Shown here: in pieces, positions 3,801-61,164 of the stretch | Layout: every line of letters starts with the position of its first letter | Position numbering within the stretch: the stretch's first letter is position 1 | Sequence record: PZ583738.1 | Reading direction: 5' to 3' (one strand) | DNA length: 64,000 bases | Origin: a phage | Translations under genes and position numbers: made by a program | The notes under the pieces: model-generated | Seen by the model: the letters and a program-made list of their open reading frames with translations, nothing else | Database searches by the model: none | Told to the model about the DNA's origin: nothing

Positions 3801-5078
3801 ATTTATTTCAGTCAGAACTTTAGGAAGTTTCACACCAAGCAGTACAGACATATCTGAACGTCCTGCCATCAAATCCATATTTGTTGCATCAATAATACGA
3901 GCTTGTTTATCATCAGCAGTCACTGTATAAGGGTTAGCTGCTAACGCATAACGAACCATTAATGCAATAGACGGCTGCAAACTTTCTGGGTCAACGACAA
4001 CTTTGAACGAACCAACATGTTCAGGGTCTTCCAGGTCAAGACCTTCGGTATAAGGTGCATAAAACAGTGAACCCACCATCTCTTTCCCACCGAAATCTTC
4101 TTTAACACCAACAGTCACATAATCAAATGGAGTGTTCGTATCACAATAAAGCGGTAGACCATTATCCAAGAAACCATACGCATTATCGGAGAGATATTTC
4201 TCATCTTGTGGACGATGCTTCAACCAACCGGAACCAGCCAAAACTGCAGCTACACGCGTAGAAGCAACAACGTATGTTGCGGTGTAAGAAGTTGCCCGCT
4301 GAATATGGGAGACCATCTCACACATGATTTCGTACAACTTGCGTGAAGCTTCCGGAGAGTTAGTATAAGACAGGTCAATCAGGCCATCATCACAGAGCCC
4401 AGCAACTTTATAACGCTTGGAAACTGTTACCAGGGATTGCAGGATATCTTTGTTAATTTCATCAGCCATTTCGGTAGCTAACAGGTCTTCCAGGAAGTTT
4501 GGAGCGTCAAAACCGTTTGCTTCCAGGTCCTGGGCCAGTTCCACTGTAACAGTGCTTTTCAGCTTACGAGATTTAACCGGAGCATTCCATTTGTTAACCA
4601 AAAATTTAGCTTCGGCAATTTCGACTTCCTGTGGTCCTTCAAAACGTTCGGTGATTGCAGCTTCGGACATAATACGGATGGTCAATTTAACCATCGCTTC
4701 TTGAAGCTGGTCATACTCATCGCCCGTTGCTCCAGCAAATGGAGTTGCTACCAGCGCTTTATAAACTACATTTTCAAACTGGAACAAATCGTCTTTAGCA
4801 TAAACTGCGCCAGCAACAAAAACCGGAATGGTCGCACGGTCTTTTGCTGATACTGCACCAGAATAGGTTGCACCAGTCTGGAAAGATAATTCATCTTGCT
4901 GAGTCAGGTATTTAAGACCGTATAATGCCGCCAGTGGCTGGGATGTGCGCTGTTGTGCTACTAAATCGGTGTAAATCAGTTTAGTCGTAGCTCTGGTTAA
5001 AGCTACTAGATTCGGTCGACCAATCGAAGAACTTGTGGTCGTGGTCGACTCTTTTAAGAGTTCGTTAATTTTAGCCAT
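3798..5078 (-). CDS. 24: head vertex protein gp24
   Basis: 426 aa, gp23-like fold signature (FYAPYTEGLD..., MVRYALAANPYT), directly downstream of gene 23 as in T4. Confidence 0.9.
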   Translation of the reverse strand: MAKINELLKESTTTTSSSIGRPNLVALTRATTKLIYTDLVAQQRTSQPLAALYGLKYLTQQDELSFQTGATYSGAVSAKDRATIPVFVAGAVYAKDDLFQFENVVYKALVATPFAGATGDEYDQLQEAMVKLTIRIMSEAAITERFEGPQEVEIAEAKFLVNKWNAPVKSRKLKSTVTVELAQDLEANGFDAPNFLEDLLATEMADEINKDILQSLVTVSKRYKVAGLCDDGLIDLSYTNSPEASRKLYEIMCEMVSHIQRATSYTATYVVASTRVAAVLAGSGWLKHRPQDEKYLSDNAYGFLDNGLPLYCDTNTPFDYVTVGVKEDFGGKEMVGSLFYAPYTEGLDLEDPEHVGSFKVVVDPESLQPSIALMVRYALAANPYTVTADDKQARIIDATNMDLMAGRSDMSVLLGVKLPKVLTEIN

Positions 5079-56034: not shown

Positions 56035-56580
56035 ATGAAAACGTTTTTAACCGGTAGTTATCTATCCCTGATGAATGCTTTTGCAAACCATTCTGATGCT
56101 AGAGTAGAACACATTTGTAATAGTGGGTTTTATGTACCCGATTCACAAACCTTGTTTAAAGAATGCTGCACCTTAAAACTTGATGGTGGGCGCCAATCTG
56201 GTAAAACTAAAGCAGTATCCATTTTTGCTACGGAATGGTTAGCTGATGGCGGCTCTATTGTTATTTTGTCTAATAACACGGCATATGCTAATGTTTCGGC
56301 TACTGCAATCCGAAAGGAATATTTTAATAACCATACAGAAAGTATTAAGCACCGTTTGTACACTGATTCTGTTCGTAGTTTTATTGGTAACACTGCATGC
56401 AAATTCCGTGGATTATCACTTTCACGGGTTCTGTATATAATTGATGAGCCTGTTAAAACACCTGATATGGATAAGATTTATGATGCCCACATAAAGGTTG
56501 TGCATTATTGCTGTCGTGCATCATGTGAAGAAACCAATCAAACCACACGTCCTCTGTTCTTTGTGATAGGAATGCAATGA
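56035..56580 (+). CDS. P-loop NTPase (Walker A GGRQSGKT, Walker B LYIIDE)
   Basis: Start at ATG MKTFLTGS; Walker motifs visible; Cys-rich C-terminus (HYCCRASCEE). Confidence 0.55.
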   Translation: MKTFLTGSYLSLMNAFANHSDARVEHICNSGFYVPDSQTLFKECCTLKLDGGRQSGKTKAVSIFATEWLADGGSIVILSNNTAYANVSATAIRKEYFNNHTESIKHRLYTDSVRSFIGNTACKFRGLSLSRVLYIIDEPVKTPDMDKIYDAHIKVVHYCCRASCEETNQTTRPLFFVIGMQ

Positions 56581-56876
56581 TGACCCATGAAGAGCTTTTT
56601 GACCAAATCTATTTTATTCCAAAGGTTAGGTCAGAAGATTTCGTAAAGAATTTTGAAATCTTTAATAAAGCAAATTTCTTTGAGTATGTGTTTTTGTCTG
56701 GGCCTTTTATTGGGTCCAGATTTCGTTGCACTGCTCCGAGTATTCGCTTGATGAAGTTGGTTCCTTACTTTACTCTGGAATTTATTTCTGGACCGTGTAA
56801 GGGTATTATCACTCGTAGCCTCCTGACCTATGACCAGGATGTGCGATTAATTAGTGACTGGAAAAAATATGTCTAA
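56577..56876 (+). CDS. hypothetical protein
   Basis: 99 aa, ATGA-coupled. Confidence 0.45.
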   Translation: MMTHEELFDQIYFIPKVRSEDFVKNFEIFNKANFFEYVFLSGPFIGSRFRCTAPSIRLMKLVPYFTLEFISGPCKGIITRSLLTYDQDVRLISDWKKYV

Positions 56877-57083
56877 ATTGACAATTGAAGGCTCTGATGA
56901 AGCTCTGAAAAGATTTGTTGAATGGTTTAATGGGCCAGGTGAACAAGACTTTCTGGAAGTTTGGGATGGTGGGCAATGGAACGGTAAAGAAATTGTTTAT
57001 CCGACTACCTATATCTCCGTACAAGGTTGTCCTGATGGCCTTCGTTTGGTAGAATATGATATCGCAACTGGCGAGGAAGTGAA

Positions 57084-57087
<4 letters not shown>
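56869..57087 (+). CDS. hypothetical protein
   Basis: Start at ATG MSKLTIEG overlapping previous stop. Confidence 0.45.
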
Positions 57088-57666
<579 letters not shown>

Positions 57667-57667
<1 letters not shown>

Positions 57668-57712
57668 TGTACAAGCAGGTTGAAATGAGTTATGATTATC
57701 CCATCAAACAAA
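57667..57712 (+). promoter_or_regulatory. early promoter / stem-loop cassette upstream of regB
   Basis: GTGTAC, 18 bp spacer, TATGAT, leader ttatcccatcaaacaaaaggag. Confidence 0.45.
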
Positions 57713-57723
57713 AGGAGATAATC

Positions 57724-58182
57724 ATGACTACTATCGATTCAAGTGTTTACATTCGCCGCAATAAACTTCGTCGCATTTTTGAAACGGAGTTCCTCAAAAT
57801 TAATAATGCTATCAACAAGGCTTGTAAAGAAGCAGGCCTTGAGGCATTCTTCATTAAGTACAGTCCACACCTGTTGGACCGTGCAATCCAACGTGAAATT
57901 GATGAACAATATGTTTTTGACTTGTTTGGAAAAATCACACCACATGTAAAAGAAATCGTTGAATTCCTGGAGATGAAACCACTCCCGGAAGTTGAAGCAC
58001 AAATTGACCCGAATGTGAACTACCGTCCACTTCGTCTGGAAATCACAGACAAGAACCTATGGTTAGGAATGACAGTTAACCCAGCTCTTCCTGGGAAGTC
58101 TCCGACCATGTGTTGTCGTATGGCGTTTGTTAACTCTAATCGTCTGGAAGGAAAAATTAGCACAAAAGTGATTTATATCTAA
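57724..58182 (+). CDS. regB: RegB endoribonuclease
   Basis: Start at MTTIDSSV; ...IRRNKLRRIFETEF...KYSPHLLDRAIQREIDEQYVF...LRLEITDKNLWLG...CRMA matches recalled T4 RegB. Confidence 0.88.
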   Translation: MTTIDSSVYIRRNKLRRIFETEFLKINNAINKACKEAGLEAFFIKYSPHLLDRAIQREIDEQYVFDLFGKITPHVKEIVEFLEMKPLPEVEAQIDPNVNYRPLRLEITDKNLWLGMTVNPALPGKSPTMCCRMAFVNSNRLEGKISTKVIYI

Positions 58183-58192
58183 TGAGGAATTC

Positions 58193-58735
58193 ATGAAAAA
58201 AGTAATCGCCACCTTACTATTGACAGTTAGTATGTCTGCCCATAGCGTAGAGCCTACTTTCAGTAATGAACAAATGGGGAACCTCCAATATGCTTATGCG
58301 TTTGGAGAACAGTTCCAGAAAAATGGTAAGTACAAAGAAAATCCGCACCAACATAATGGTTTGGGATATATCATGGCTGGTTTAGCCTGGCAGGAAAGTT
58401 CTGCTGGGATTAATACTGGATTAAATAAAGATAAGCATCATGCATATGGTATATTCCAAAATTATCTTCCAACCGTGCGCGAACGCGTGAAACAGGTTGG
58501 GTGGACAATGACAGATAAAGAAATAATCAAGATGATAAGCAAGAGAGAGAACAGCGCACGCTGGGCTTATATTGAGCTTTCATACTGGTTGAATATTCAT
58601 AAGGGGGATATAAGGAAAACACTATCATCATATAACGCAGGGTGGAATGTGAAAGCTGGTAATACGTATGCTTCACAGGTCCTAGAAAAAGCTAACTACT
58701 TAAAATCACGAGGCCTATTAAAAACGGTGGATTAA
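58193..58735 (+). CDS. secreted lytic-transglycosylase-like protein (SLT-type E-S...G-x-x-Q motif)
   Basis: 180 aa; signal peptide MKKVIATLLLTVSMSAHS; AWQESSAG and HAYGIFQ resemble SLT catalytic region. Confidence 0.55.
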   Translation: MKKVIATLLLTVSMSAHSVEPTFSNEQMGNLQYAYAFGEQFQKNGKYKENPHQHNGLGYIMAGLAWQESSAGINTGLNKDKHHAYGIFQNYLPTVRERVKQVGWTMTDKEIIKMISKRENSARWAYIELSYWLNIHKGDIRKTLSSYNAGWNVKAGNTYASQVLEKANYLKSRGLLKTVD

Positions 58736-58737
58736 AA

Positions 58738-59097
58738 ATGGTAAGAGTTATCACTTTAGCCATAGGGTTAGTATTCAGCATGGGAGGAATAGCTTCAGTA
58801 CAGAGCGATGACAACAACAGCATCATAGAATATGCAACGAGGACGGCTAAAGATTATTGCGCAGCAAGCAATGTGGATTGTGTAATCCAGTTCAGTGCCA
58901 AGCTCACCGCAGCCTATAAAGATGGCCAAAATGATGTTGAACATACGCTTTTGAAAAAGAATGTATTATCCAACAAATATGAAAAGAAATTATTTGAAAT
59001 GGATTGCATTCTATCAAGTGCAAAATATAAGGCGGCCTGCACCAGTATGGTTGACAGGTTAGTGGATTCATATAATAGAGGATTGAACTCTAAATGA
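58738..59097 (+). CDS. hypothetical secreted/periplasmic protein
   Basis: 119 aa; N-terminal signal peptide MVRVITLAIGLVFSMGGIASVQS; four Cys. Confidence 0.5.
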   Translation: MVRVITLAIGLVFSMGGIASVQSDDNNSIIEYATRTAKDYCAASNVDCVIQFSAKLTAAYKDGQNDVEHTLLKKNVLSNKYEKKLFEMDCILSSAKYKAACTSMVDRLVDSYNRGLNSK

Positions 59098-59567
59098 TTA
59101 CCCAGTATATTAAGGGCGATATCGTCGCCCTCTTTCTTAGTGGTAAAAACATTGCACATGGTTGCAATTGCTTCCATACAATGGGTTCAGGCGTAGCTGG
59201 TCAGTTGGCGAAGGCTTATCCAAGGATTTTAGAAATAGACAAAACCTCAACCGACTATGGTTACAGAGGAAAACTCGGTGATATGTCTATTGTTTTCAAA
59301 TATTCCCGAGGTCCGTCAACTTGCTTTAATCTTTACACCCAATATGAACCAGGACCAAATCTTGATTATCATGCTTTAGTAAATTGTATGGTAGAATTAA
59401 ATCGAGTCCTGAGTGAAGGAACACTATTCCGACCAGTGGTTTATATCCCACGGATTGGATGTGGTATTGCAGGTGGAGATTGGGAAAAGGTCTCTATGTT
59501 AATTGATATTTTTACCCCTGACATTGATTTGATAGTGGTGGATTATGAGCCAAGCCCGAATTCTTAA
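59094..59567 (+). CDS. macro-domain protein (putative ADP-ribose binding/hydrolase)
   Basis: 157 aa; GCNCFHTMGSGVAGQL and PRIGCGIAGGDWEKV match the two glycine-rich macro-domain signature blocks. Confidence 0.65.
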   Translation: MITQYIKGDIVALFLSGKNIAHGCNCFHTMGSGVAGQLAKAYPRILEIDKTSTDYGYRGKLGDMSIVFKYSRGPSTCFNLYTQYEPGPNLDYHALVNCMVELNRVLSEGTLFRPVVYIPRIGCGIAGGDWEKVSMLIDIFTPDIDLIVVDYEPSPNS

Positions 59568-59751
59568 AACGGCCAAATGTGAAAAATGTGAATGGCCAGT
59601 AATCGCAGCTTTGTGCAACGATGAAATGGAATGTGAATTTGATTACTGGTGGTACTGTTCTAATAAAGGATGTTCTAATCATAAGGGTGAAGGTTTTCAT
59701 TCTGGTTATTGCGAACATCCTAAATTTGTGCGATATGGGGAACCGAAATGA
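59545..59751 (+). CDS. Cys-rich small protein (possible zinc binding)
   Basis: 68 aa with 9 Cys (CEKCEW, CNDEMEC, CSNKGC, YCEHP). Confidence 0.45.
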   Translation: MSQARILKTAKCEKCEWPVIAALCNDEMECEFDYWWYCSNKGCSNHKGEGFHSGYCEHPKFVRYGEPK

Positions 59752-59933
59752 GTTTAAGCATTAGTCAGAAAAGTAGATTATTTGAGCTTATCCATGAGCT
59801 TTTGGATGAGCATACGGAAGCAAATGCTTTTTATGATGAATATGGCCCGATAGATGCCGACCATCAGGAAGAATTTGCCAATCGATTTGATGCGAAAGAA
59901 AACGAATTAATAGCTTATGTGAATACGCTTTAA
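59748..59933 (+). CDS. small acidic helical protein
   Basis: 61 aa; C-terminal ...KENELIAYVNTL similar to ORFs 61841-62035 and 62035-62217. Confidence 0.45.
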   Translation: MSLSISQKSRLFELIHELLDEHTEANAFYDEYGPIDADHQEEFANRFDAKENELIAYVNTL

Positions 59934-59942
59934 GAAGGTGAT

Positions 59943-60515
59943 ATGGCGAGTTTAATTTATCATTACGCAGCAATGAATGCAGGCAAAACAGCTTCATTGC
60001 TGACTGCAGCTTATTCCTATAAAGAGCGTGGAATGAGTGTGCTTTTGCTAAAACCTGTTATTGATAATCGGGACTCGGAAGGCGAAATTAAATCACGCAT
60101 CGGTATTAGCCAGGAAGCAAACCTGGTAACGGCCGACATGAACCTGTTTGAATTCTATAAATGGGCCGAGTCTCAAAAGGATATCCATTGTGTCCTGGTC
60201 GATGAAGCTCAATTTTTGTTACCAGAGCAAATTGACCAGTTAGCTCAAGTGGTTGATAATTACAATATCCCCGTTATGTGTTACGGGCTAAGAACAGATT
60301 TTCGGGGTCAATTATTTCCCGGTTCGGCCAGACTTCTGGCTATTTCGGATAAACTGGTTGAATTAAAGGGCGTCTGTCATTGCGGCCGGAAAGCAACCAT
60401 GACCGCTCGAGTAATCGACGGTGCTGCTGTAAAGGACGGCGAGCAAGTATTGGTCGGTGGGAATGAATCGTACGTATCTTTGTGCAGAAAACATTGGCTC
60501 GAATTAACAAGCTGA
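59943..60515 (+). CDS. tk: thymidine kinase
   Basis: 190 aa; MASLIYHYAAMNAGKTASLL P-loop, VCHCGRKATMTAR zinc ribbon, LCRKHW; matches recalled T4 Tk. Confidence 0.93.
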   Translation: MASLIYHYAAMNAGKTASLLTAAYSYKERGMSVLLLKPVIDNRDSEGEIKSRIGISQEANLVTADMNLFEFYKWAESQKDIHCVLVDEAQFLLPEQIDQLAQVVDNYNIPVMCYGLRTDFRGQLFPGSARLLAISDKLVELKGVCHCGRKATMTARVIDGAAVKDGEQVLVGGNESYVSLCRKHWLELTS

Positions 60516-60522
60516 GGTTCGC

Positions 60523-60798
60523 ATGGTATACAAGGTTTGGACGTATATCTCTATTTTGATATTCCTGGTTTTGGTTTTTGTTCCTATGCAACAGGACCAG
60601 GAAAGGTATGAGCGCGAAGTCGAAATCGTTGCAAGTACCTATCACTCGTTCAACAAAGAGTGCCCGAATAAAAACGGAATAAGCCTGCAACAAGCGTACT
60701 ATTTGTCAACGATTACCAGCCCAAAACAACGGGTCTGGGTCGAACGTAATTTTGCAAGTTTATTTTCAGAGTACTGCTTTAATTTTAAAAGATTATAA
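60523..60798 (+). CDS. small membrane protein (rI.-1 position)
   Basis: 91 aa; N-terminal TM ISILIFLVLVFV. Confidence 0.5.
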   Translation: MVYKVWTYISILIFLVLVFVPMQQDQERYEREVEIVASTYHSFNKECPNKNGISLQQAYYLSTITSPKQRVWVERNFASLFSEYCFNFKRL

Positions 60799-60870: not shown

Positions 60871-61164
60871 ATGGACCTTATTCGAGGACTTTCATTAAGT
60901 CTAATAATCCTGGGCTGTTTAGGCCCAAATCTGTCCTCTGCAACAGAGGGGAAGTTTACCCAATATGCAGATAGTGCGATGAAGATTTATTCGCAATTCA
61001 AAGAACCAAGCGTGCACCAATCCGAACAGTTCTGGGCGTTTATCAAGACTGAATGGAACAACAAAAGCCAATGCGAAACTGAAATTACCTGCAAAAGCGA
61101 TGGTAAAGCTGCGGCGAGAGAGTACGCTAAATTAATGAAGGTAAAATTGGAAGATGAAATTTGA
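60871..61164 (+). CDS. rI: lysis inhibition regulator RI (antiholin)
   Basis: 97 aa (same as T4 RI); signal-anchor N-terminus; QSEQFWAFIKTEW and C-terminal AAAREYAKLMKVKLEDE resemble recalled T4 RI; adjacent to tk. Confidence 0.75.
   Translation: MDLIRGLSLSLIILGCLGPNLSSATEGKFTQYADSAMKIYSQFKEPSVHQSEQFWAFIKTEWNNKSQCETEITCKSDGKAAAREYAKLMKVKLEDEI

Follow-up and report, generated by a model that had tools for sequence, protein, structure and literature searches.

We analyzed a 64,000-nucleotide stretch of phage DNA (sequence record PZ583738.1; hereafter the window) and focused on two adjacent open reading frames (ORFs) on its + strand, which lie between regB and a macro-domain gene. ORF1 (58193..58735) encodes a protein of 180 amino acids, with a predicted mature form of 162 amino acids and 18.6 kDa. 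ORF2 (58738..59097) starts 2 nt past the ORF1 stop and encodes 119 amino acids, with a predicted mature form of ~11 kDa. A first-pass annotation, made from the sequence alone, had placed two secreted proteins at these coordinates, likened the first to soluble lytic transglycosylases (SLT) and left the second anonymous. Its observation is confirmed here, with both ORFs on the + strand, but it missed that the pair corresponds to vs.1 and vs of phage T4. ORF2 is the gene historically named valyl-tRNA synthetase (ValRS) modifier and is therefore not an anonymous secreted protein. We describe ORF1 as the vs.1 orthologue, encoding a predicted exported peptidoglycan lytic transglycosylase of the GH23/SLT type, and ORF2 as the vs orthologue, encoding a predicted exported four-helix protein with four conserved cysteines. 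We lean slightly towards reading vs.1-vs as an exported envelope module, in which a murein-cleaving enzyme would be paired with a small disulfide-bonded partner.

Two adjacent ORFs are orthologues of T4 vs.1 and vs

By sequence comparison, ORF1 is the orthologue of T4 vs.1: the two proteins are 66% identical over their full length, and ORF1 matches phrog_600 over residues 1-178 (E=2.6e-67). ORF2 is likewise assigned as the orthologue of T4 vs, with ~46-49% identity to the T4 protein and a match to phrog_1256, annotated as 'valyl tRNA synthetase modifier' (E=1.4e-32). Using tblastn, we found relatives of ORF1 in 2071 phage records and relatives of ORF2 in 808, and proteins identical to each are already in GenBank. 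PF26829 is precomputed on all 28 database relatives of Vs. Since relatives occur in so many phage records, identical proteins are deposited and the T4 orthologues have been detected as proteins, the pair is not a chance pattern. As sequence features, vs.1 and vs are conserved, already annotated T4-family genes.

T4 Vs.1 (NP_049725; phrog_600) has in common with the window protein the position between regB and vs, the signal peptide and the SLT motifs, and we found no difference of substance between the two. T4 Vs (NP_049724; phrog_1256; PF26829) shares with the window Vs the four cysteines and an invariant C-terminal SMVDRLVDSYNRGL motif, and both genes overlap or abut vs.1 and the macro-domain gene. 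The signal-peptide sequences of the two Vs proteins differ while their character is kept, and the signal region of the window protein is 4 residues longer. The naming of these proteins in GenBank is inconsistent: Vs.1 appears as endoribonuclease, as a member of the C-type lysozyme/alpha-lactalbumin family, as SLT protein or as hypothetical protein, and Vs is often named 'valyl-tRNA synthetase', i.e. the enzyme itself.

Vs.1 carries the motifs and predicted fold of a lytic transglycosylase

Family-1 lytic transglycosylases such as Slt70 share an E-S motif, G-L-M-Q (G-x-x-Q), A/S-Y-N-A-G (A-Y-N-x-G) and a downstream Tyr. Vs.1 carries all four, as E68-S69, G86-x-x-Q89, Y147-N-A-G150 and Y159. The first two, E68-S69 and G86-I-F-Q89, are the E-S…G-x-x-Q pattern from which the first-pass annotation had drawn its SLT likeness. 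The codons for the predicted catalytic Glu-Ser pair (within WQESS) lie at 58394..58399 (+). We aligned 57 Vs.1 homologues, down to 41% identity, and observed that W66, E68, S70, G86, Q89, N90, Y147, N148, G150 and Y159 are invariant, while S69, S146 and A149 are conserved in at least 90% of the sequences. Distant relatives from Ackermannviridae, Pseudotevenvirus and Felixounavirus retain the E-S motif and a signal peptide.

We used hhalign against full-length E. coli Slt70 for residue correspondence only, the probability being negligible with this single-sequence template. The alignment placed WQESS of the Vs.1 family on ARQESA of Slt70 and YGIFQN on SGLMQI, so that E68 corresponds to the Glu of the Slt70 QES motif, which we take to be the catalytic residue of that enzyme. 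Pfam SLT (PF01464) matched 51 of the 57 family members at E<=0.01, with a best value of E=1.3e-7, and some members carry precomputed PF01464; the same scan of the 57 sequences returned no other family.

The AlphaFold2 (AF2) model of Vs.1 has a mean predicted local distance difference test score (pLDDT) of 85.7. Foldseek searches of this model against PDB gave salmon and ostrich goose-type lysozymes, Pseudomonas aeruginosa Slt and MltD as the best matches, and the top 15 were almost all GH23 enzymes (probability 0.9-1.0, TMq 0.42-0.54). The similarity to transglycosylase folds, which had been proposed as a check of the SLT likeness, was therefore found, and the likeness holds at the level of motifs, Pfam and predicted fold. 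The resemblance itself is already in print: Nolan et al. reported in 2006 marginal SLT matches for six vs.1 orthologues and cited earlier PSI-BLAST matches of vs.1 to lysozyme (PMC1524935). Several GenBank records of Vs.1 relatives are also annotated 'SLT domain-containing protein'.

Goose-type lysozymes are not only the top Foldseek match but recur among the other hits, and GH23 holds both chemistries, which sequence cannot separate with certainty. Vs.1 might accordingly be a hydrolytic goose-type lysozyme, or else a non-catalytic murein-binding protein, and not a lytic transglycosylase at all. We consider this improbable, as the A/S-Y-N-A-G and G-x-x-Q motifs are of the family-1 lytic transglycosylase type (e.g. 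Slt70), and a non-catalytic role is argued against by the invariance of the catalytic Glu in very distant relatives.

Lytic transglycosylase identity thus remains our preferred assignment for Vs.1. It shares its motifs and an all-helical, lysozyme-like fold with E. coli Slt70 and other family-1 enzymes (PF01464, GH23) as well as with goose-type lysozymes, and a periplasmic location via a signal peptide, known for Slt70-type enzymes, is predicted for Vs.1 too. The differences are in architecture and setting. Vs.1 consists of a 162-residue catalytic domain alone, lacking both the superhelical U/L domains found in Slt70 and the LysM domains of MltD, its sequence similarity to these proteins is marginal, and it is phage-encoded and expressed from early infection, whereas Slt70-type proteins are housekeeping enzymes.

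Vs.1 and Vs carry predicted export signals

Signal peptides were called with our own heuristic. It scores the charge of the n-region, the length and hydropathy of the uncharged core and the presence of small residues at -3/-1, and we ran it on 28 Vs sequences, 57 Vs.1 sequences and 79 additional loci. ORF1 begins with MKKVIATLLLTVSMSAHS, followed by VEP; this N-terminus has two Lys and an uncharged core of 16 residues, and the residues at -3 and -1 are small. This n/h/c pattern predicts a Sec signal peptide of amino acids 1-18 (58193..58246, +) with cleavage between AHS and VE, in line with the signal peptide that had been proposed for this ORF. ORF2 begins with MVRVITLAIGLVFSMGGIAS, followed by VQSDD, with one Arg and a 20-residue uncharged stretch. 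Its predicted Sec signal peptide spans amino acids 1-20 (58738..58797, +), with cleavage between IAS and VQ or, alternatively, after VQS23.

These features were observed across both families. Every full-length Vs.1 and Vs has 1-2 Lys/Arg, an uncharged core of 13-22 residues and an AxA-like site, after which acidic or polar residues follow. In both alignments no other part is less conserved in sequence than the signal segment, yet its physicochemical character is retained. In one Vs clade (L039-L042, L058 and P0121; in L039-L042 and L058 the homologue lies at ~4549-4875), a lipobox, MKKLFVLLVVFALSGC (LSGC), replaces the signal peptidase I site. The annotators of Acinetobacter phage Konradin independently marked a 'putative periplasmic secretion signal' on Vs.1, the Vs-like gene, the two next genes and rI. 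Together, these signals suggest that Vs.1 and Vs are both delivered to the periplasm. In some Vs.1 relatives (L055 to L057) a Cys ends the hydrophobic core, which may be a lipobox.

An export signal on Vs is hard to reconcile with the function for which the gene is named, because ValRS is cytoplasmic. The classical reading holds that Vs is a cytoplasmic, ValRS-modifying 'tau' factor whose hydrophobic N-terminus is inefficient, serves only for tethering or gives dual localization, and that Vs.1 is an unrelated protein, adjacent to it by synteny. All annotations bear the ValRS-modifier name, and the binding of Vs to host ValRS is cited in the literature (PMC8076793, citing Mueller & Marchin 1975/1977). 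The predicted topology points the other way. A Sec signal is predicted in all full-length Vs homologues, so that Vs would not share the compartment of ValRS, and the character of the signal is kept in every homologue down to ~20-25% identity. The lipoprotein signal of the one clade would confine Vs to either the periplasmic face of the inner membrane or the outer membrane. Charges in Vs are positive ahead of the hydrophobic core and acidic behind it, which predicts an N-in/C-out orientation, and an alignment of 30 Vs sequences contained no conserved internal start codon from which a cytoplasmic isoform could be made. We regard the classical reading as possible, though clearly not the probable one.

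The size of the protein is of some relevance here. Predicted mature T4 Vs has a mass of 11.05 kDa and the precursor 13.06 kDa; the purified ValRS-binding factor was reportedly ~10 kDa, a size that would agree with the processed protein. For the window Vs, the predicted mature mass is 11.08 kDa with a VQSD start and 10.77 kDa with a DDNN start. N-terminally His-tagged T4 Vs was insoluble in the E. coli cytoplasm (PMC8076793), a behavior that would be expected of an unprocessed secretory disulfide protein and that we take as weak evidence.

Vs is a predicted four-helix protein with two pairs of conserved cysteines

The window Vs has exactly four cysteines, C41, C48, C90 and C101, so that the description of ORF2 as a small, Cys-containing protein with a signal peptide proved accurate. 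The codons of C41 to C48 (C-x6-C) span 58858..58881 (+), and those of C90 to C101 (C-x10-C) span 59005..59040 (+). C90 and C101 are invariant in 30 aligned Vs sequences. C41 and C48 are kept in every homologue that covers the region, including divergent ones; the exceptions are 85-amino-acid variants (P0117/L013) and C-terminal fragments (e.g. P0120). Across the family the spacings vary (C-x6-10-C and C-x9-10-C); divergent Vs proteins encoded by Klebsiella, Acinetobacter and Cronobacter phages have C-x6-10-C and C-x9-C. The natural 85-amino-acid variant (L013 4541-4798; P0117, Escherichia phage vB_EcoM_005) has an internal deletion of the C41/C48 region and two cysteines left; gene decay or faulty assembly may explain it.

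In the AF2 model of Vs, helices span residues 24-40, 46-69, 74-90 and 95-116, the signal peptide region is disordered and pLDDT is 77-92 per 10-residue block from residue 31 onward. The loop that joins helices 1 and 2 lies between C41 and C48, and that joining helices 3 and 4 between C90 and C101. The two pairs may form disulfides, each stapling one helix hairpin. We favor these over a zinc site because the loop lengths vary and CxxC knuckles are absent. Four conserved cysteines at such positions suit an oxidizing compartment, a further point against a cytoplasmic Vs.

We next consider the relatives of Vs. A fold search in PDB and BFVD returned only its own family, and Pfam gave nothing beyond PF26829. 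An exhaustive Vs-family profile search of 1.8 billion representative proteins yielded 8 hits, all of them phage Vs relatives except the spurious P0119. As far as these searches reach, the Vs family appears to be without relatives outside T4-like phages. P0119, the one hit that is not phage-like, was rejected as a relative: it is a 17-fold tandem repeat in which weak per-repeat matches sum, and no Cys is aligned. A possible relation of Vs to four-Cys lysozyme inhibitors of the LprI/DUF1311 type was dropped when a Pfam scan of 11 family members gave no such hit at E<=5.

A more general version of this idea is that Vs is a periplasmic muramidase inhibitor, an antidote that restrains Vs.1 or blocks the lysozymes of the host or of superinfecting phages, as Spackle or PliG/Ivy do. 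The closest parallel is T4 Spackle (gp61.3), an early product of 97 amino acids with a cleaved 22-residue Sec signal peptide, which is helical, periplasmic, disulfide-bonded and a partner of a lysozyme-fold domain (PMC7650644). Vs is predicted to be similarly small, helical and exported, and contains Cys. In addition, vs directly follows a GH23 enzyme gene, and the structure that Vs.1 matches best is that of a g-type lysozyme crystallized with its inhibitor PliG. The parallel does not extend to the proteins themselves. Vs showed no similarity in sequence or fold to Spackle, Ivy, MliC/PliC, PliG or LprI, and Pfam returned no inhibitor family for it; a single disulfide in Spackle contrasts with four conserved cysteines in Vs; and Spackle inhibits gp5 of the incoming phage, whereas the partner of Vs in the envelope is putative. 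Furthermore, many phages have Vs.1 without Vs. These data make an inhibitor role for Vs doubtful in our view.

The first-pass annotation had suggested superinfection exclusion or cell-wall remodeling for the pair, an interpretation that is supported in part. Cell-wall remodeling is reasonable for ORF1. For superinfection exclusion we found nothing in favor, and Vs lacks any fold resemblance to the T4 exclusion protein Spackle.

Vs occurs only together with Vs.1

To describe the linkage of the two genes we retrieved 79 IMG/VR loci with the Vs.1 profile. A Vs homologue directly follows vs.1 in 51/51 T4-like loci, with a gap of -8 to +7 nt. The other 28 of the 79 loci, from Aeromonas-type T4-likes and Felixounavirus, carry Vs.1 without detectable Vs within 4 kb. 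Conversely, all contigs found with the Vs profile also carry Vs.1 (27/27). Vs thus occurs only with Vs.1, and not the reverse. In Acinetobacter phages the vs.1-vs pair stays together without regB, the macro-domain gene or tk nearby.

As controls, we counted the flanking genes in the 51 T4-like loci. The macro-domain gene adjoins vs in 27/51, and regB, which has no cell-wall role, adjoins vs.1 in 46/51. After the regB-vs.1 control, gene adjacency was downgraded as an argument for functional coupling.

The T4 orthologues are expressed early, and their disruption is costly

In T4, vs.1 and vs are transcribed as early RNA and classed as middle proteins, and both proteins were detected by mass spectrometry in infected cells (PMC9697503). 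The early expression that had been assumed for the pair fits these data.

Fitness effects are available from HIDEN-SEQ transposon mapping, described in a 2025 preprint (bioRxiv 10.1101/2025.11.20.689424). In this study vs was the most depleted gene in M9-glucose versus LB, and a clean knockout confirmed the defect. In the HIDEN-SEQ table, the mean for T4 vs falls from 26.6 in LB to 5.0 in M9 (log2 fold change -2.19, adjusted p 0), and that for vs.1 from 22.6 to 11.9 (log2 fold change -0.87, nominal p=0.0055, adjusted p 0.155). Both genes stand out already in LB, where T4 neighbours have means of 179-767, including 179 for regB, 290 for tk.4, 265 for vs.4 and 652 for vs.3. In phage Bas37 the means are 23.5 for vs and 73.8 for vs.1, compared to ~325 for the regB and tk.4 orthologues. 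Relative to the non-essential genes that flank the pair, insertions in vs and vs.1 are depleted several-fold to >25-fold. The fitness dip is limited to the vs.1-vs pair and is seen in two phages, T4 and Bas37.

This pattern fits either a shared function of the two genes or polarity of vs.1 insertions on a translationally coupled vs. It also bears on the inhibitor role considered above. If Vs only neutralized Vs.1, vs.1 insertions would be neutral; instead they are depleted in both phages, which speaks against a role of Vs solely as the antidote of Vs.1.

The same data can be used in favor of a cytoplasmic ValRS modifier. The defect of the vs knockout is specific to minimal medium, in which the supply of amino acids and the charging of tRNA are limiting, the effect of vs.1 insertions could be polarity on vs, and the high background synteny would account for the neighbouring vs.1. 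The authors of the HIDEN-SEQ study keep the ValRS-modifier reading, with ValRS and localization outside their tests (bioRxiv 10.1101/2025.11.20.689424). Because the minimal-medium phenotype is what an aminoacylation role predicts, we leave the classical function a real, though minor, chance of being correct.

A putative exported envelope module

We return to the exported envelope module that we favor, and outline how it might work. vs.1 and vs would be transcribed together with regB and the macro-domain gene from early infection. Vs.1, synthesized as a precursor with a cleavable Sec signal peptide, would be set free in the periplasm, where, as a family-1 (Slt70-like, GH23) lytic transglycosylase, it would use Glu68 as the single acid/base to cleave the MurNAc-GlcNAc bonds of host murein. 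Vs, whose start codon abuts or overlaps the vs.1 stop, would be exported too, as a lipoprotein in some clades. In the periplasm it is predicted to form a four-helix bundle in which each of the two helix hairpins is stapled by a disulfide. Its site of action would be the envelope, where it would most probably serve Vs.1 as a partner for targeting or regulation. The pair may then locally remodel the cell wall and raise phage yield, most visibly in nutrient-poor medium.

Specialized lytic transglycosylases of the EtgA, VirB1 and FlgJ types belong to secretion and flagellar systems and have dedicated partner proteins. They offer an analogy, and only that, of a small SLT-domain enzyme that is exported alone and encoded beside a small partner which would direct or control it. 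The analogy has a clear difference, in that we know of no trans-envelope machine that assembles early in T4 infection.

Several findings weigh against the module. The window Vs.1 scores 16.0 bits against Pfam SLT (PF01464), under the gathering cut-off of 21.3, its Foldseek E-values are only ~0.06, and a Vs.1 profile search of PDB sequences gave none significant, the best relevant match being a g-type lysozyme at E=0.81. With respect to the pairing, synteny is so strong at this locus, as the regB control demonstrates, that adjacency alone says little about function. Vs.1 does not need Vs, because many phages (Aeromonas-type T4-likes, Ackermannviridae and Felixounavirus) have the former without the latter being detectable, and the vs.1 dip could be polarity on the coupled vs. 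With respect to Vs itself, the defect in M9 is also predicted by an aminoacylation-related function, and work from the 1960s and 70s is said to have found that a phage factor of the vs locus binds ValRS, with in vivo genetic interactions with valS(ts).

The two bodies of evidence on Vs could be accommodated if Vs is an exported, disulfide-bonded envelope protein that works with Vs.1, and the ValRS effect is a post-lysis artefact, belongs to another small ORF or reflects a minor unexported pool. We offer this combination tentatively. If it is correct, the minimal-medium defect of T4 vs mutants is an envelope phenotype and not a translation phenotype, and ValRS binding after lysis would come from the mixing of periplasm with cytoplasm.

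The module would also have consequences for the lytic repertoire of these phages. If Vs.1 is active as predicted, T4-type phages own a third murein-cleaving enzyme besides gp5 and E, made from early infection. Where it lists the T4 lysozyme genes, a 2020 T4 paper gives only e and 5 (PMC7650644). Meanwhile vs has acquired a clean phenotype, the defect in minimal medium, which is being read through a 50-year-old label that the sequence contradicts topologically. The remaining interest of the locus lies in this conflict, open to testing, between how vs is named and the topology predicted for it, and in the role that an early exported lytic transglycosylase would have. Depending on how the conflict resolves, the classical assignment would be upheld or a textbook T4 gene re-assigned.

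The neighbourhood of vs.1 and vs

The source phage of the window is a T4-like coliphage. Over region 57600-59600 the closest record is Escherichia phage DK-13, with 98.6% identity; many SP18-like T4-type phages share 94%, among them UPEC07, which is classed as Gaprivervirus (Straboviridae). In UPEC07 several small neighbouring ORFs bear obviously propagated wrong names. The gene order in the window is denV ... regB, ORF1, ORF2, the macro-domain gene, three small ORFs, tk, a small membrane ORF and rI. This is the order of the denV-rI region of T4, in which the genes between regB and tk.4 are vs.1 and vs.

Both flanking genes given in the first-pass annotation were recovered by Pfam. Upstream and outside the module, regB (57724..58182, +) encodes the site-specific RNA endonuclease (REGB_T4, E=5.7e-72). 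It had been called mechanically from a GTG at 57667 (57667-58182, +; 171 amino acids). Because the REGB_T4 match begins at residue 23 of that call, the real start is probably the ATG at 57724, which gives 152 amino acids, compared to 153 for T4 RegB. A Shine-Dalgarno-like GAGGA, read from the sequence, lies at 58184..58188 (+), 4 nt 5' of the vs.1 ATG. Downstream, the macro-domain gene (59094..59567, +; Macro, E=1.8e-6), the orthologue of T4 tk.4, shares 4 nt (ATGA) between its start and the ORF2 stop. T4 tk.4, renamed AdfM, is required for resistance of T4 to the DarTG2 defence system (bioRxiv 10.1101/2025.11.20.689424). A promoter and terminator scan of 56500-60000 gave counts equal to the shuffled expectation, and hence no dedicated signals.

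Further downstream, tk is followed by a small ORF (60523-60798, +) with an N-terminal membrane segment and two Cys, which resembles Konradin orf133, and this in turn by rI (60871-61164, +). The window thus appears to hold a loose cluster of envelope-directed early genes. Among T4-like phages, rI lies 0.7-3 kb downstream.

Other loci carry additional candidates. Between vs and the macro-domain gene, some T4-like phages, among them those of Klebsiella and Acinetobacter, encode a third exported protein (e.g. L004 2363-2755 and L006 2306-2731); it has 130-141 amino acids, a signal peptide followed by WE(K/Q)L, and 2-4 Cys. Gaps of ~400 nt follow vs in L039-L050 and L058. In Konradin, five predicted envelope proteins are encoded in a row, by vs.1, vs, the third exported gene, a membrane ORF and rI. 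The Felixounavirus relative of Vs.1 (L009 1501-2049; L064-L088) is encoded immediately behind rIIA/rIIB and two genes ahead of an i-spanin gene, in surroundings related to lysis.

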